Shown here: one piece after another, positions 7,871 to 54,066 of the stretch
Numbering within the stretch: position 1 is the first letter of the stretch
Layout: each line of letters opens with the position of its first letter
From: Octopus vulgaris
Taxonomy: Eukaryota
NCBI GenBank assembly: GCA_951406725.2
Contig: OX597817.1
Span: 141,608,001-141,672,000, forward strand
Direction: 5' to 3'
DNA: 64,000 bases
Notes under the pieces: generated by a model
Databases searched by the model: none
Told to the model about the DNA's origin: nothing
Seen by the model: the letters and a program-made list of their open reading frames with translations, nothing else
Made by a program: the position numbers and the translations under genes

Positions 7871-8260
7871 CATTTTCCACATATAGAGTGGAATACTTCA
7901 AATTAGTTCTCATTTAGATGTATACTGTGTCTTTCTTTTCTCTCCCCCATTGGACTACAGCGAGCAGATCTTGTTAAATATTAGTTCGCTCTTCTTTTGA
8001 CGTCTTTCAGAGCGGGAATTCTAATGATGCTTTGTTTGCTGACCTCAGTGATGTCATTGATGTAAATAATGAAACGGAGTGGGACCAATACCTTGCCTTG
8101 TTCGAGTCCATTATCATTATTGTTGTTGTTGTTGCTCTGCGAAATATACAATAATAAAACAATGTATCTGCGAGTGTGTGTGTCGATCTAATGGTATATA
8201 TGTGTCGCTTGTGTGTGTATACACAACAACACAACACAAACACACACATATATACACCTG

Positions 8261-8305
<45 letters not shown>

Positions 8306-8396
8306 GTGTGTGTGAGTATGCGTATGTTGTGTGTGTGTGTGTATGTGTGTGTGTCTTGATACGCAGACACAAACACACACATGTATGTATATATAC

Positions 8397-8458
<62 letters not shown>

Positions 8459-8601
8459 GTGTGAGTGCGGTGTGCGTGTGTATATGTGTGTATCTGTGTG
8501 TGTATGTGTATGTAAGTATGTCTTCCCCACACACATAATATATACATATGTATATATTTACATATATACATATATGTATGTATATATATATGTATATGTG
8601 C

Positions 8602-8691
<90 letters not shown>

Positions 8692-8863
8692 AAGTATGTA
8701 TTCACCCACACAAACACACGTATAATTGCTCTTAATAACATTCGTGATACACTCGCCTCTTATATTGTCTCCTATTCATAAATTTAGAACCGTGTAGGCT
8801 ACAAAGTACTTCATCCTCATCACCGTATCTATATTTGATCGACCGACCTCGTCGCCGGCAGCC

Positions 8864-13626: not shown

Positions 13627-13637
13627 ATACATACATA

Positions 13638-13674
13638 GGCGCAGGAGTAGCTGTGTGGTAAGTAGCTTGCTAAC
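13638..13674 (+). mobile_element. SINE-A 5' head, split by ORF1-only element; includes left TSD 13660-13674
   Basis: ggcgcaggagtagctgtgtggt-aagtagcttgctaac; the SINE resumes at 15911. Confidence 0.9.
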
Positions 13675-15910
13675 ACACATGCGCAGTTAGTCAGTTGCTT
13701 CCTGTTCAGCCAGAGTGGACGCGAGTCAACCAGCTCCGTCCAATTAAAGAAAAAAGACCAAAAACGGAAAGTTGTCGAGGTAAGTGATTTTGTTTATTGT
13801 GAGTTGGGCATAATTTATTGCGTGCCAATTATTATTTCAGTAAGTTGTGTCCAAATCTGAGACAATTTCGCCTGCTCTCGGCGGCTGCCGTTTTTGTGTT
13901 CATTGAAAAAAAAAAGAAAAAAACAGTGGAGGGGCGTATCCTCGGAATTCAATACAGTTACTGTTAAAATTACCGTTGGCGGTAGCCAGTGCTGTGTTTG
14001 GGTTTGTTGAATTTATTCCCTTGTCAGAGTACTTCGCAAGAAAATTATAAAAATAAGCCACTATTGGATTACCTTTCGGACCCATTTTTGTGGAAGTTGT
14101 GTTGCAGTTGCGGCGTTCCAGGTTCAACCCAGGCCGGGAGTACCGCAAGGCCAGAATATTTTTGCTGTGTTTTTTCTGTTTATTAACTTTCTTTTGAACT
14201 TCATTTTAACCCCCCCTTTTGTTTTTTTTCTTTATTGCGACTTTCCGTTGATTTCTTCCCTTCTGTTGTGCTTTCTCCTTTTTGTTTTTTCAAAAATCTA
14301 TCAAATTTTATTTGAACTTTTGAACTTTTTTCTTCTTGCTTTTTGAGTTTAATTTGAATATATTTAAAAAAAATATATATATGGCAATGAAAAATAACAA
14401 AATTTTGGAGTGGGAAATCATACCACCCAAAAAGTGGTTAAAAGACCGTGAAGATAGGACGGTGGTGTTGAGAACCTACTCCAAGGCACTCGACACCATC
14501 GCCCTATTCGAAAAGACGGCAATTGAAAAGGAGTTGGAAGAGTATTTGCCAACAATTAAATTCATTTCAGGGGTGTCAAATATGCAACGGTGTGGTTGCT
14601 ATTTGACACCCCTGAAGAGGCTTGCAAACCCCTGGAGGGTAAGGAAATCTTATTCCTGCCCACGTACAAAAAAAGAAATTGATGAAAGCTTGGATTTGCG
14701 GACTGCCACCCGACATAGAACCCGAGTGGATAGAGGAGACTATCCGCCGGGGTCTGGGTGGCAGCGAAACTAAGCTCCTTAATGTAAAAGTTCTTCCTGC
14801 GGCTGCTTGGGTTGGGTCAAAAGCAATTTTGACCCTGTGGACCCAATCAGCCAATCTGGTTCTTCCAGATTTTTTGAAAATGGCCGGGTGCAGGTACCCG
14901 GTGATGCTTGAGGGTCGCCCCCCTAAGTGTCATCGGTGCTTGGAGTCCGGCCACATAAAGAAGAACTGTCCCCGGGAACAAAATAGGATCCCGGAACAGT
15001 TAAGTAAAACCCCTCTAGAAGAGGGAATGATAACGGCCGAGAAAGCAGAGGAAAGCAGAGGCCGAAAGAGGAAGGTGAGCAACAATGGGTGCTCACCAAA
15101 GGATAATAGGGATGAGGAGAGGAAGGCGAATCTTCCGGCCACGGAGGAGACGCACCCTCCCTCAGTTGAAAAGGGAAAAAAAAGAAAAAGAGGAAGAAAA
15201 ACGGGACATTGCCGGCTGTCAGTGACATAGCACCGGAATGTCCCGGAACTACGTCGGTTGGGATTGTGCCACCGACAAGAGAAGGAATACCGTTGGCGGG
15301 AACTGTGCCGCCAACGAAAGAACTATTGGTCCTCTTCTATAGAGGAGGTGAAATTGAAAAGGTGATGGAAGAGCACCACAAGGGAGTACCTTTAGCCTTC
15401 ACACAGGACCCCGAATGGCCTCCGCAGGTAGCTGTGGAGGCCGTGGCGTTCGACGTGACGCTTGGGCTAAAGGAGCTCAATGAAGATTATAACTTGGTCC
15501 CGGGCGACGCAAACTCGGAACTTGATTACGTTCTGAGGGAGGCGTGGTTGATGGTGGAGGGCGCGGGCACAAGCTATTTCGAGGACGATATGTAATTATT
15601 GAACTGTTATTATTAGTAATGGACTGCTAAGTCCAAAAATTGAAAAATTGTAAGAGGTTTAATACCTCGTTTTGTAATAATGGACTGCTAAGTCCAAAAA
15701 TTGGAAAAATTGTAAGAGGTTTAATACCTCGTTTTGTGTTTATCTTTAAAAAGAACAATGTTTTAGAGAAGCGAAAGTCGGCGGGCGCTTTTTGTCTTCT
15801 CCCATCCTTATCATCTTTCTTTCATTATCATTCACTTCATTAATGTCCTCGTCCAGCCCGCAAAGCTAACTTAATCTGTGTACTGCCTTTATGGCAAATG
15901 TTTTGAAATA
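13675..15910 (+). mobile_element. ORF1-only L1/Tx1-like (HAL1-like) non-autonomous retroelement, copy 1
   Basis: Perfect 15-bp TSD aagtagcttgctaac (13660-13674 / 15911-15925); ~700-bp 5' UTR, one broken ORF, 3' UTR ending in gaaata(aa); homologous over most of its length to 51199-53634; no RT. Confidence 0.85.
14381..15595 (+). pseudogene. ORF1p-like protein (putative RRM-like region + CCHC zinc knuckle), frameshifted
   Basis: Pieces in three frames; AWICGLPP, LEGRPPKCHRCLESGHIKKNCP (CX2CX4HX4C), basic tract. Confidence 0.8.
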
Positions 15911-16053
15911 AAGTAGCTTGCTAACCAACCACATGATTCCAGGTTCAGTCATACTGCGTGGCATCTTGGGCAAGTGTCTTCTGCTATAGCCCCGGGCCGA
16001 CCAATGCCTTGTGAGTGGATTTGGTAGACGGAAACTGAAAGAAGCCTGTCGTA

Positions 16054-16096
<43 letters not shown>

Positions 16097-16328
16097 ATGT
16101 GTATGTGTTTGTGTGTGTGTGTTTGTCCCCCTAGCATTGCTTGACAACCGATGCTGGTGTGTTTACGTCCCCGTCACTTAGCGGTTCGGCAAAAGAAACC
16201 GATGAAATGAGTACTGGGCTTACAAAGAATAGGTCCCGGGGTCGATTTGCTCGACTAAAGGCGGTGCTCCAGCATGGCCGCAGTCAAATGAGTGAAACAA
16301 GTAAAAGAGTAAAAAAAGAGTAAAAGAG
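15911..16328 (+). mobile_element. SINE-A remainder after the insertion
   Basis: Continues caaccacatgattccaggttcagtc... and is nearly identical to 28712-29070. Confidence 0.92.
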
Positions 16329-28689: not shown

Positions 28690-29080
28690 TGGCTGTGTGG
28701 TAAGTAGCTTACTAACCAACCACATGGTTCCGGGTTCAGTCCCACTGCGTGGCATCTTGGGCAACTGTCTTCTGCTATAGCCCCGGGCCGACCAAAGCCT
28801 TGTGAGTGGATTTGGTAGACGGAAACTGAAAGAAGCCTGTCGTATATATGTATATATATGTGTGTGTGTTTGTGTGTCTGTGTTTGTCCCCCTAGCATTG
28901 CTTGACAACCGATGCTGGTGTGTTTACGTCCCCGTCACTTAGCGGTTCGGCAAAAGATACCGATAGAATAAGTACTGGGCTTACAAAGAATAAGTCCCGG
29001 GGTCGATTTGCTCGAGTAAAGGCGGTGCTCCAGCATGGCCGCAGTCAAATGACTGAAACAAGTAAAAGAGAAAAGAGAGA
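28690..29080 (+). mobile_element. SINE-A, young near-complete copy with an empty target site
   Basis: tggctgtgtggt-aagtagcttactaac-caaccacatgg shows the uninterrupted target of the ORF1-only element. Confidence 0.92.
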
Positions 29081-36841: not shown

Positions 36842-37676
36842 GCACTCACACACATACACAAAAACACATTCATGTATGATGCTATGCAGTACCTCCCCAC
36901 CAAATACCACCCATATATCAATATAATAATCAAAGCTATAGTAAATATACCTGCCCAATGTGACTCGATGTGTAATCGAAGCTCTTAGACGCATAGTCAT
37001 ACTTCTGCACTATTACCTCCGAATCTCCTGAACATAATGCTGTCGCCCATTGACACAGTGAACGAATACTGATCCGGCATTGTTCTGGTGGGACTCTATT
37101 TTCATGTTATTTACTTATGATACGTATATTATATTCTCAATGAACGCATTGTTCTGTGGAATTTTTCATCATATTTATTTAGAAATTACTCTTTAATGGT
37201 GAGTTTATGTAAATGAATATACTGTGATGCAGTCGCGGATAATTTCAGTTTCCTGAATAGGCCCATGAATTCATCATACGTCTAGTGTCTTATCGTCTGT
37301 AAGTTATTTATTCAGGTAAGAATTCGAAAAATATTCCAGACATATGGCTGCATTCATGCATACATGCATTTATGGGTACTCAAACACACACGCATGCATA
37401 TATATATATGTATATACATACATACATATATGTGTGTGTATACATATCGATATATACATACACCTATATGTATATATGCAACACGTGCGCGTACATACAC
37501 GCACATATATATATACATATACATATCTTTATGCATATGTACCTATCTAGCTTCTTACTTTGTGTATATACTTTCTTAAACATACACACATACACACACG
37601 TGTGCACGTATATTCATATATACATACATACATATACATATATACATAAATATATATATATATATATGTATGTATG

Positions 37677-37709
<33 letters not shown>

Positions 37710-37710
37710 G

Positions 37711-37801
<91 letters not shown>

Positions 37802-38644
37802 GCATATATAAGCCACTTGGCTGCTGCTTATTTGGTCGTGCAAACGTTAACCTAACGAGGTGTGTTAAAAGTTAAGATCAAAGGTGAATGTTTAAGAGAA
37901 CCTGAAGCGTCTTGTTATTCATTCGCCACTCAATAGAATCGACGTATTCAGAGAGTGTGTAAAAGCATGTTATCCCACAGTTCGGTGCCTCCAATATGCA
38001 CATACGCACATTCTTATTTATTACACCAGTTCGGCCAACTTCAAAGTAATATCTCCAAGTTGTAAACACGGAAAAATTGTATATAACAATAAAATTCCGT
38101 TGGAATAGGTGAAGGAAATCTGTGATTATACAGGAACATTAAACAAGAGAATCTTTTGGATACGTGACTTACATAATAATAACAAAACTATATTTCGGTA
38201 GTTATGAAGACTGTAGGAATTTGAAAAAAGAAATATATATAAAAATATTAACATGGAAAATAAATAAAGCTATTCGGAAATGATTCCAGTCTTTGTCTGG
38301 TTTTAATGAGATGGAATAATAAAGAATAATAAAACAAAGAATTCCAGTTGATTCCAGTGACATTAAAGAAAGCAATACTTTGTAAGTGACGAACTTCTTC
38401 CAAAAATGTGACTGACATTTTTATTTCACGAATCTACATAGTATATTATCACGATATCAAATCTGATATCGAAATTGAGAAAAAGAATATTGTGTGGTTA
38501 AGATTTTGTTACTCAATTTTGTAGATATGTGTTCCGGTCTAGACACCTACACAGTGTGAAATTCATATTCTGTATTGCAATTTCATGAATATTAAAGAGT
38601 TTCTGTCATAATGGATTGGCACCTGAATATCTTTGTTACTTATT

Positions 38645-51030: not shown

Positions 51031-51142
51031 TGTATGTATGTATGTATGTATGTTTCTATCTATCTATCTATCGCCATATATATATATACATAATTATTAA
51101 CTCGAGCACACAAGCACACAAAAATATATATTCACATATATA

Positions 51143-51198
51143 GGCGCAGGAGTGACTGTGAAACGCAGGAGTAGCTGTGTGGCAAGAAGCTTGCTTCC
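51143..51198 (+). mobile_element. SINE-A 5' head (with partial duplication), split by ORF1-only element; left TSD 51184-51198
   Basis: cgcaggagtagctgtgtggc-aagaagcttgcttcc; the SINE resumes at 53635. Confidence 0.85.
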
Positions 51199-53634
51199 GG
51201 TTCCGGTCGTGGAGTTGACTTCTTGACACTGAACGATGAGGACGTGAGCTTTGAGCTCCGTCCTAAAAAGAAAAAATAACAAAAACAGAGAAGGTTGTCG
51301 AGGTAGGTGATTTTGTTTGTTGTGAGCTGGGCATAATTTATTACGTGCGAATCATTTTTTCAGTAAATTGTGCCCAGCTCTGGGACAATTTCGCCTGCTC
51401 TCAGCGGCTGCTGTTTTTGTGTATTAAGAATTTATTGGATTCATTTTTTCTGGGGCGTATCCTCGTCTTCGGTTTACGTTGAGTGAATATTTTCCTCACT
51501 TAATTATGAAAATTATTGCTTGTATTGTGCCTTTTGAAGAACTTTAATAATTGTGAGAACTGCTGTATGGGGGAGTGTTTTGCCTCCGAAGATTGAACAA
51601 TTTGTATATCAATTTTTGCGGAAGTTGTGTTCCAGTTGTGGCGTTCCGGGTTCAACCTAGGCCGGGAGTACCGAATGACGGGAAGATTTTTTTGCTGTGT
51701 TCCTGAACTATTGACTTTCTTCTAAACTTTATTTGACTTTCTCCTTTTTGTTTATTGTGACTTTCTTTTGATTTCTTTTTTCTTCTCGCTTTTTAAGTTT
51801 TATTTTGAATAAATTTAAAAAAAAAAAGAAACATGGCAATAAAAAATGACAAAATTTTGGAATGGGAGATCATACCGCCTAAAAAGTGGTTAAAAGACCG
51901 TGAAGATAGGACGGTGGTGTTGAGAACCTACTCCAAGGCACTCGACACCATCGCCCTATTCGAAAAGACGGCAATTGAAAAGGAGTTGGCAGAGTATTTG
52001 CCAACAATTAAATTCATTTCCAGGGGTGTCAGATGTGCAACGGTGTGGTTGCTATTTGACACCCCTGAAGAGGCTCGCAAATTTGTTAGTCAACCCCTGG
52101 AGGGTAAGGAAATTTTATTTCTTCCCACGTATCATGAGAAGAGGTTGGCGAAAGCTTGGATCTGCGGGCTGCCACCCGGAATAAAACCCGAATAGATAGA
52201 GGAGACTACCCGCCGGGGTTTGGGTGGCAGCGGGACCAAGCTTCTTAATGTGAAAGTTCTTCCTGCGGCTGTTTGGGTTGGGTCAAAAGCAATTTTGACC
52301 CTTTGGACTCAATCAGCCAATCTGGTTTTTCCAGATTTTTTGAAAATGGCCGGGTGCAGGTACCCGGTGATACTTGAGGGTCGCTCCCCCAGGTGTCATC
52401 GGTGCCTGGAGTCCGGCCATATAAAGAAAAACTGTCCCCGGGAACAAAATAAGATCCCGGGGCAGTTAAGTGTGACCCATGTAGCAGAGGGAATGAAGAC
52501 GGCCGAGGAAGCGGAGGACTCCTAAAATAGGGGCCGAAATTGGAAGAAGGTGAGCAACAATGGGTGCTCACCAAAGGATCCTAGGGATGAGGAGGGAAAG
52601 GCGAATCTTCCGGCCACGGAGGAGACGCATCCTCCCTCAGTTGAAAAGAAAAAAATGAGGAAGAGGAAGAGAAACGGGACATTGCCGGCAGTCGGTGACA
52701 TAGTACCGGAATGTACCGGAACTACGTCGGTTGGGGTTGTACCACCGACAGGAGAAGAAACACCGTTGGCGGGAACTGTGCCGCCAATGAAAGAATTGAA
52801 TATTCCGCCCCCTGGAAAAGACGATGTATTGATCTTCCATAGAGCCGGAGAGATTGAAAAGGTGATGGAAAAGCACCATAAGGGAGCACCTTCAGCCTTC
52901 ACACAGGACCCCGAATGGCCTCCGCAGATAGCTGTGGAGGCCACGACGTTCGACGTGACATTTGAGCTGGAGGAGCTCAATGAGGAATATCGCTTGTACC
53001 CGGGCAACGCTAACACGGAACTCGATGCGGTTTTGGAAGAAGCGTGGAGGATGGCAGAAGATTCGCGCACAAGTTATTTTGAGGATGAGTCATAAATTGT
53101 GGCACTGTGTGACACAAACATTTGATAATAGGCACTTCGCTTTCTTTCTGAACTCCCCGGCTGTCAACGTGGTCTGCTCTGCAGGCGGCTAGATATTTGA
53201 CTGGGTCCGGAAAGAGGAGGAAGGGAGAAGTGATAATGTATTTTTTATTTTTGATAGGACATGTTTAAATACGACTTGAGGGGCCCCGACGTAGAGCTGG
53301 CGTATTCCTAAGGGAAGTGTAGGCCAGGTCTGGGAGGAGGGGCTTTGTGTATTGTATTTATATTATATGTAATTATTGAACTATGTTGTTGTTTGTAATG
53401 GACTGTTAAGTCCAAAAATTGAAAAGTTGTAAAAGTTGTGAGAGGTTTAATACCTCGTTTTGTGTTTGGTTTTAAAGAACAATGTTTTAGAGAAGCAGAA
53501 GTCGGCGGGCGCTTTTTGTCTTCTCTCATCCTTATCATCTTTCTTTCATTATCATTCATTTCATTAATGTCCTCGTCCAGCCCGCAAACCTACTTTACTC
53601 TATGTACTGCCTTTATGGCAAATGTAATGAAATA
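51199..53634 (+). mobile_element. ORF1-only L1/Tx1-like (HAL1-like) non-autonomous retroelement, copy 2
   Basis: Degenerate 15-bp TSD aagaagcttgcttcc / aagaaacttgcatac (53635-53649); same architecture and 3' end as copy 1. Confidence 0.85.
51833..53095 (+). pseudogene. ORF1p-like protein, 420 codons in one frame with two premature stops
   Basis: ORF-track pieces 51833, 52220 and 52550 share one frame; stops at 52193-52195 and 52523-52525; CHRCLESGHIKKNC knuckle; KKKMRKRKR basic motif. Confidence 0.85.
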
Positions 53635-53789
53635 AAGAAACTTGCATACAAGCCACGTAGTGCCGCTTTCCATCCCACTGCGTAGCACCTTCGGCAAGTG
53701 TTTTCTACAATGGCCTCGGGCTGACCAAAGCCTTTTGAGTGAATTTGGCAGATGGAAACTGACAGAAGCCCGTCGTATGTATATATATA

Positions 53790-53848
<59 letters not shown>

Positions 53849-54066
53849 ATATGTATGTGTTTGTGTGTCTGTGATGTTCCCCTCTACCGTCGCTTGACAA
53901 TCGATGCTGGTGTGTTTACGTCCTCGTAACATAGCGTTTCGATAAAAGACGCAGTAGAATAAGTACTAGGCTTACAAACAATAAGTCCCAGGGTCTATTT
54001 GCTCACGTAAATGCAGGGCTGCAGCCTCACCACAGTCACATAACTGTAACAAATAAAAGTAAAAGA
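53635..54066 (+). mobile_element. SINE-A remainder after the insertion
   Basis: cccactgcgtagcaccttcggcaagtg...gaagcccgtcgta-(TA)n-3' module. Confidence 0.88.

Follow-up and report, generated by a model that had tools for sequence, protein, structure and literature searches.

A community of autonomous and ORF1-only L1/Tx1-group retroelements shares one base of an octopus SINE

The targets of Tx1-clade elements include other transposons (PMC4494074, PMC3706591), and the recorded ones are DNA transposons, long terminal repeat (LTR) elements, U2 and U5 small nuclear RNA genes, 5S, satellites, microsatellites and a tRNA spacer (PMC4494074, PMC3706591). HAL1, a non-autonomous L1 derivative that encodes only the protein of open reading frame 1 (ORF1p), has arisen several times in mammals (PMC5753468). 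Short, non-coding elements also share the site of a target-specific partner: R2 SIDE and R2/R1 SIDE have a ribozyme and ribosomal DNA (rDNA) sites (PMC3414825), and SINEU is a passenger of Tx1-Mar (PMC4494074). For R2, co-transcribed target RNA can strengthen target-specific integration (PMC4494074, citing Eickbush 2000 and Fujimoto 2004). The repeat annotation of Octopus vulgaris lists 80 L1-Tx1 families, 13 of them recently active with 421 insertions (PMC13282606). Here, we analyze a 64,000-nt stretch of O. vulgaris DNA (contig OX597817.1; 'the window'), in which two ORF1-only elements interrupt copies of a short interspersed element (SINE) at the same base. Across the genome, autonomous and ORF1-only elements of the L1/Tx1 group form a community that shares this one SINE base. 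We consider it likely from sequence comparison that the window copies are non-autonomous members that insert at the fixed base, supply their own ORF1p and borrow their enzymes from an autonomous element.

The two elements in the window are related, and each splits a SINE whose sequence breaks off after GCTGTGTGG(T/C) and continues in register beyond the element, a 15-mer standing on either side (Table 1); the coordinates given by the initial annotation, which had reported two diverged elements at the same SINE nucleotide, proved exact. The 15-mer of copy 1, AAGTAGCTTGCTAAC, is present at both of its positions, while the two 15-mers of copy 2 (51184-51198 and 53635-53649) differ by three mismatches. 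Between the two copies, identity is 85% in ORF1 and 88% in the final 250 nt; their first ~60 nt differ. The nearest other genomic copy of copy 1 is 1.2% different; copy 2 has 94-95% identity to five relatives. The empty site that had been noted near 28700 is an uninterrupted SINE, a paralogue rather than a pre-insertion allele. The 5' untranslated regions (UTRs) span 634-706 nt and precede the single ORF of ~420 codons that had been described, which is 420 codons in copy 2 (stops at codons 121 and 231) and is split over three frames in copy 1 (shifts near 14569, 14650-14676 and 15170); its zf-CCHC match is weak (E 0.018, below the cut-off). Consistent with the reported lack of reverse transcriptase (RT), a tblastn query with an intact ORF2 (E<0.01) matched neither the window nor any of 66 full-length elements. 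The 3' UTR does end at AATAAA, as had been claimed, but this terminal motif overlaps the target (AATA/AAG, the slash marking the junction).

The SINE base is the fixed target of these elements throughout the genome, in searches with thousands of candidates, of which the best 40-150 were scored. A query with the last 173 nt of copy 1, including two target bases, had 2047 candidates, of which the best 40 were scored, and all 30 loci returned enter the SINE at the same base. With a copy 2 query that lacked target bases, 28 of 30 loci are joined at the site, two of these running on into another SINE, and two lie in non-SINE DNA. Similarly, loci chosen by ORF1 protein alone are at the site in 30/30 cases, one in a host with a deletion. 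The exact pattern of the element's last 19 nt, which excludes T at flank position 16, has 361 matches. A hand tally of the first 100 in the list has the SINE 15-mer directly after the element in 98 (small deletions allowed) and two doubtful cases. Flanks are thus not unrelated in any of these four sets. In PMC4494074, target specificity is assigned where more than 20% of flanks are of one sequence type; here the values are 98/100 and, for the autonomous element described below, 39/39. Chance coincidence would be ~1.3e-4 per insertion, even at ten times the exact SINE count.

Across all families there are 732 exact occupied junctions and 74,034 exact empty sites, and ~1% of near-consensus sites are occupied; 92 junction keys, which merge identical young loci, were not used as locus counts. 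With so few sites filled, the parasitism of the SINE that had been proposed is weak in effect. The junction pattern had no matches in metagenome contigs. At L076 and L098 (L numbers denote loci), a different SINE family begins 11-30 nt past the junction, close to where the duplication ends on the top strand.

The 15-mer had been read as a 15-nt target-site duplication. The repeat is indeed present on both sides, but its 3' part comes from the element, such that in full-length copies the 15-mer is partly element-borne and only partly a duplication. Among 59 full-length copies with a defined 5' type (of which L129 and L164 are probably one locus), one of 26 host variants at 15-mer positions 12-15 reappears on the 5' side, and it is an indel artefact; of 14 at positions 1-11, four do, and some of this second group are later mutations. 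A seven-copy subfamily has a common one-base deletion at position 10 irrespective of host. We checked 16 autonomous copies (13 with a full 5' end, one slightly truncated and two with no 5' end seen), and all six in variant hosts retain the element's own end; an extra T at position 10-11 is found in 4 of the 13 and in three ORF1-only copies. The switch from host to element probably lies near positions 9-11, and the element RNA would start with at least 5-6 target-identical bases. An element-borne end explains two or all three of the 15-mer mismatches of window copy 2; in five other copies of its 5' type the 15-mer is identical or one base off. Elements are stacked in tandem at L033, L137, L139, L159 and L194 because the target-identical 5' end rebuilds a target site.

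Two further features of the 5' region were observed. The SINE head is partially or triply duplicated upstream of the insertion at window copy 2 and at L034, L051 and L312, which could be due to a longer RNA start or to a property of the SINE itself. A splice-donor-like motif sits ~70-120 nt into otherwise unrelated 5' UTRs (51300-51308 in copy 2; Table 1 for copy 1). All seven 5'-end types have it, as do 62 of 66 full-length elements and the autonomous element; copies from which the putative 5' UTR intron had been spliced out were not seen. Contigs from two sequencing runs presumed to be RNA cover 29-30 of 30 bins, and those from a third cover 3 of 30; they show no spliced joint and carry no weight in the argument.

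Elements of different age favor different SINE variants, according to hand tallies among the first 100 listed ends. A at flank position 4 (the AAGAAG variant) follows 0 of 72 young ends, all of which have T, compared to 22 of 100 empty sites (Fisher p 3e-6), but it follows 25 of 28 older ends. The preference of the older end may reflect only the SINEs existing then, while that of the young ends needs discrimination, whether by the endonuclease, by RNA pairing or by accessibility. These tallies are what would be expected if the site were set mainly by RNA-DNA pairing of target-identical RNA ends, refreshed from their hosts, together with a loose AAGW-type endonuclease. This account also draws on the element-borne 5' end, which varies by subfamily in step with SINE subfamilies, and on the sister families described below, which are followed by the short motif AAGAAAT and then by varied DNA. 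We nevertheless consider it unlikely, since 5'-truncated copies still reach the site, elements with unrelated 5' UTRs use the same site, and at L171 the first base is host-specific on either side, so that the 3' flank is host DNA. Moreover, off-target sites retain just the first 3-6 target bases, as expected of protein recognition, and target choice is set mainly by the endonuclease according to Kojima 2015 (PMC4494074). A more limited role for pairing is a tentative suggestion, itself doubtful: targeting may be partly RNA-guided and self-updating, in that the RNA carries a piece of the last SINE and pairs with the next target, the preference of the entire community, autonomous and ORF1-only, having shifted from AAGAAG to AAGTAG along with the dominant SINE subfamily. 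If so, the specificity of a long interspersed element (LINE) would follow a fast-evolving SINE via inherited RNA ends as well as via its endonuclease.

The enzymes that the ORF1-only elements would borrow are encoded by an element at the same site. The SINE-junction pattern, with known element ends excluded, yielded 10 loci: seven further ORF1-related lineages, two with an ORF2 upstream and one without a visible element. A 5.4-kb element (L269/L270) lies within the same SINE at the same base and encodes an ORF1 of 467 aa and an ORF2; the initial annotation had predicted just such a longer relative, with the same 3' end and target and an ORF2 with apurinic-type endonuclease (APE) and RT. The ORF2 contains PF03372 (Exo_endo_phos, N-terminal), PF00078 (RVT_1) and PF13966 (zf-RVT, C-terminal), and its best PDB match is L1 ORF2p (E 5e-54), which ranks above R2. 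The 40 copies scored are 99-100% identical over 361 nt, and the other 39 all join the same SINE base, 35 meeting the SINE body, two another autonomous 5' end and two the 5' end of an ORF1-only element. ORF2 frames of at least 1133 aa occur in 14 of 150 matches scored (L311 is an intact 1133-aa copy read whole), and there are older ORF2 relatives at 69-90% identity. Approximately the final 35 nt of the element recur in the ORF1-only families, and L150, an ORF1-only copy, starts with the first 32 nt of the autonomous element. The hallmarks of target-primed reverse transcription are seen: a fixed 3' end, variable 5' truncation, and 10-17 nt duplications in truncated copies. In a quick RT tree of 27 of 31 rows (four were too short) with no named Tx1 or L1 reference, the element groups with other octopus families (SH-aLRT 98), to which it has 62-68% identity, and separately from plant-type proteins; these sister families do not use the SINE site and mostly continue with AAGAAAT. 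ORF2 protein searches, for longer and for near relatives, returned no named Tx1 among their matches. The autonomous element is an L1/Tx1-group non-LTR retrotransposon and the probable partner of the ORF1-only elements.

Two other candidates for the partner were rejected. The extra 3' segment of copy 2 and a set of short 384-nt matches led to a related ORF1 C-terminus and to a ~490-nt derivative, with no ORF2. The 30 best zf-RVT loci, whose 3' end was not located in at least three cases, belong to other L1/Tx1 families; none of them joins the SINE site, and they were kept as a control. Many other L1/Tx1-type families with intact ORF2s of 1125-1148 aa are present (L230-L259), some in 5.4-kb tandem arrays; downstream of these elements is mostly AAGAAAT and sometimes the end of another such element.

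Several observations weigh against the reading that the ORF1-only elements use a fixed site with the enzymes of this partner. Off-target copies are known (L081/L140, L085/L144, L163 and L229), and the 59 copies show ~7 substitutions on the 5' side of the 15-mer alone, so that some of the 3'-only mismatches are post-insertion mutations. The partner's ORF1 is just 27% identical to the ORF1-only protein (E 1e-22) and, apart from L150, the 5' UTRs tested do not align; thus, the ORF1-only elements are not simple deletions of the partner that was found. The shared ~35-nt 3' stretch is short and partly common to sister families that do not use the site, and, with the best 40-150 of thousands of candidates scored, a closer autonomous family may be hidden. 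A different, closer autonomous family with the same target might then have given rise to the ORF1-only elements and still mobilise them, a proposal favored by the low ORF1 identity, by the 150 of 11,513 ORF1 candidates scored and by the older ORF2 relatives. We judge it quite improbable, since the 66 full-length elements bear no trace of an ORF2, while the family found is young and abundant, has the same site, SINE-variant preference and terminal motif, shares its 5' end with L150 and forms mixed tandems.

The ORF1-only elements have kept their protein. Intact natural copies of ORF1 encode 413-427 aa, and several (L192-L199) are nearly identical. Residues 1-210 fold confidently (pLDDT, a measure of model confidence, of 88 with a 46-row alignment) into two RRM-like domains, after which comes the CCHC knuckle. 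The full-length protein folded from a single sequence has a pLDDT of 38, and the confident model covers the N-terminal part only. The best Foldseek match among tandem-RRM proteins has an E of 6e-5 with low TM-scores, because domain orientation differs, and each half of the model matches single RRMs at Z 7-9. ORF1 is under purifying selection: over codons 1-205, dN/dS is 0.09-0.21 for L192 against five other copies and 0.11-0.14 against a distant subfamily, compared to 0.25-0.53 among closer copies, in which post-insertion decay adds to the ratio. Named homologues of ORF1 are from Octopus and Argonauta, that is, octopod, and a word-based protein search had two matches. A predicted integrase-domain protein of Octopus sinensis (P0002) carries the first ~70 residues of ORF1 and is probably a gene-model fusion.

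Related elements with other structures were also observed. A recombinant-looking subfamily (L043, L044, L051, L060, L062, L066, L067 and L069) combines a divergent ORF1 N-terminus, at 54% protein identity, with a 3' part that matches copy 1 at 94%. L260-L266 represent more ORF1-related lineages at the same base, with ~67-80% DNA identity over the ORF1 region (31-39% protein identity for L261), which suggests repeated origins or an old radiation. In a derivative of ~470-495 nt (L151, L153, L156, L160, L166, L209, L212 and L213), whose 5' end is fixed at this SINE base, only the 3' UTR and what remains of the C-terminus of a related ORF1 are left; it looks like a short non-coding passenger.

Within the host SINE, we label A- and B-box-like motifs by the RNA polymerase III (Pol III) consensus. 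These are 32 nt apart in the empty copy, and the SINE promoter would be lost once insertion moved them 2.3 kb apart. ARAGORN finds no tRNA gene and Rfam no tRNA match in the host SINE. The position of the site, after the A-box-like motif in a tRNA-like head, could mean that the true target is a tRNA gene family and that the SINE is struck only through its resemblance, and Dewa is a Tx1 element that lies near tRNA genes (PMC3706591). This is very unlikely, as flanks run on into the SINE body, the preference follows SINE subfamily variants, and no tRNA flank was seen among the junctions inspected, which included no dedicated check of tRNA genes.

The insertions at this SINE base are independent. 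Truncated copies with unique 5' breakpoints carry host-specific letters in their duplications, both in SINEs (L138, with a 15-17 nt duplication, L122, L143 and L189) and in non-SINE DNA (L140, 12 nt; L163, 16 nt). Among 40 full-length young copies, the distances between elements show no correlation with those between their hosts (Mantel rho 0.10, p 0.14), and the two sets of distances are thus not congruent; the elements of L192 and L196, for example, are 0.36% apart in hosts that are 13.6% apart and of different SINE subfamilies. (For L197, host distances of 32-35% were set aside, as a deletion had distorted the alignment.) The upstream SINE head is mostly host DNA, because its divergence tracks that of the host (rho 0.35, p 0.005, n=60). 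That a single ancestral SINE-plus-insert composite multiplied as a unit, the shared site reflecting descent, might be argued from the full length of most copies, with a SINE head upstream, and from the 33 of 42 full-length copies of two young 5' types in one young SINE subfamily, but it is largely refuted by these observations and by the unrelated elements (autonomous, L261-type and L229-type) at the same base, and is scarcely credible.

We propose that the elements insert by target-primed reverse transcription at one SINE base just past the A-box-like motif. The ORF1-only elements would supply an RNA-binding ORF1p of their own, and endonuclease and RT would come from the 5.4-kb element, as suggested by the shared site, the shared 3' end and the mixed tandems. 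Judging from the duplications of truncated copies, the bottom strand would be nicked opposite GGT/AAG and the top strand ~10-17 nt downstream. Full-length cDNA would then pair with the target overhang, which would produce the observed overwriting of host variants. The target-identical start of the RNA would favor full-length insertion, and the restored site would permit stacking. An internal Pol II promoter probably drives transcription, given the 11-13 runs of five or more T per copy.

The features of the window are collected in Table 1. It also contains about ten more copies or fragments of the same SINE, and long simple-repeat tracts in many places (for example, 1050-1510, 8240-8700 and 37400-37810).

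Table 1. Coordinates of the two ORF1-only elements, their host SINEs and the empty site in the window
Feature	Position	Strand	Remarks
Host SINE 1, 5' head	13637-13659	+	A-box-like motif 13648-13658
5' copy of 15-mer, copy 1	13660-13674	+	True duplication probably ~9-11 nt, rest element-borne target-identical end
ORF1-only element copy 1, young subfamily	13675-15910	+	2236 nt
Splice-donor-like motif, 5' UTR of copy 1	13777-13785	+	
ORF1 of copy 1	14381-15595	+	Three frameshifts; CCHC knuckle 14928-14969
3' UTR of copy 1	15596-15910	+	~62-nt tandem duplication 15614-15737; last ~35 nt common to autonomous element
Host SINE 1, resumption	15911-16320	+	Target 15-mer 15911-15925; B-box-like motif 15942-15952; 95% identity to empty copy
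Uninterrupted SINE, empty paralogous site	28690-29075	+	
Host SINE 2, head	51142-51183	+	Partly duplicated (51142-51160 and 51164-51183)
5' copy of 15-mer, copy 2	51184-51198	+	Fits older element subfamily, not own host
ORF1-only element copy 2, older subfamily	51199-53634	+	2436 nt
ORF1 of copy 2, 420 codons	51833-53095	+	Two in-frame stops; CCHC knuckle 52394-52435
Remnant C-terminus of related (L229-type) ORF1 lineage, in 3' UTR of copy 2	53256-53365	+	
Host SINE 2, resumption	53635-54060	+	79% identity to empty copy

Known base-precise LINEs mostly hit conserved RNA genes, microsatellites or DNA transposons, and a SINE target is dispersed and evolves in waves. Since old and young element ends favor old and young SINE variants, a change of specificity can be watched, and the sister families that do not use the site (62-68% ORF2 identity) are natural pairs for mapping how an APE gained recognition of a long site. 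The persistence of ORF1-only elements with a conserved ORF1p on a site-specific partner makes the question of HAL1-type ORF1 retention testable. The ~74,000 exact empty sites represent a large, harmless-looking niche. Automated repeat annotation will wrongly split or merge such nested element/SINE units.

Each ingredient of this system has a precedent; we did not find the combination or the type of target described, and prior curation is possible. A search of full-text literature, with subscription papers, Repbase, Dfam and bioRxiv supplements outside its scope, found no SINE-targeting Tx1/L1 element. The octopus elements may be among the L1-Tx1 families of PMC13282606, whose main text and one supplement do not contain 'target' or 'nested' and count L1-Tx1 without target analysis.

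Like the octopus family, the specific elements of the Tx1 clade (Tx1/Tx1D, Keno, Kibi, Koshi, Tx1-Mar, Dewa and Mutsu) combine an ORF1, an APE-RT ORF2 and a fixed multicopy target; their listed targets include no SINE head, which is the target in octopus, and the octopus ORF2 is a possible member of the clade. R2 differs in its restriction-like endonuclease and rDNA target, while the octopus family has an APE, 10-17 nt duplications and a dispersed target. SIDEs and SINEU are short and non-coding, unlike the ORF1-only elements, and find their closest parallel in the ~490-nt octopus derivative. The comparison to HAL1 made in the initial annotation is apt in that the octopus elements encode only ORF1, have no ORF2 remnant and have been amplified as such with ORF1 maintained. 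They are not HAL1 in the strict mammalian-L1 sense, however, as they differ in their RRM-RRM-CCHC ORF1p, their base-precise insertion and their 27% ORF1 identity to the partner.
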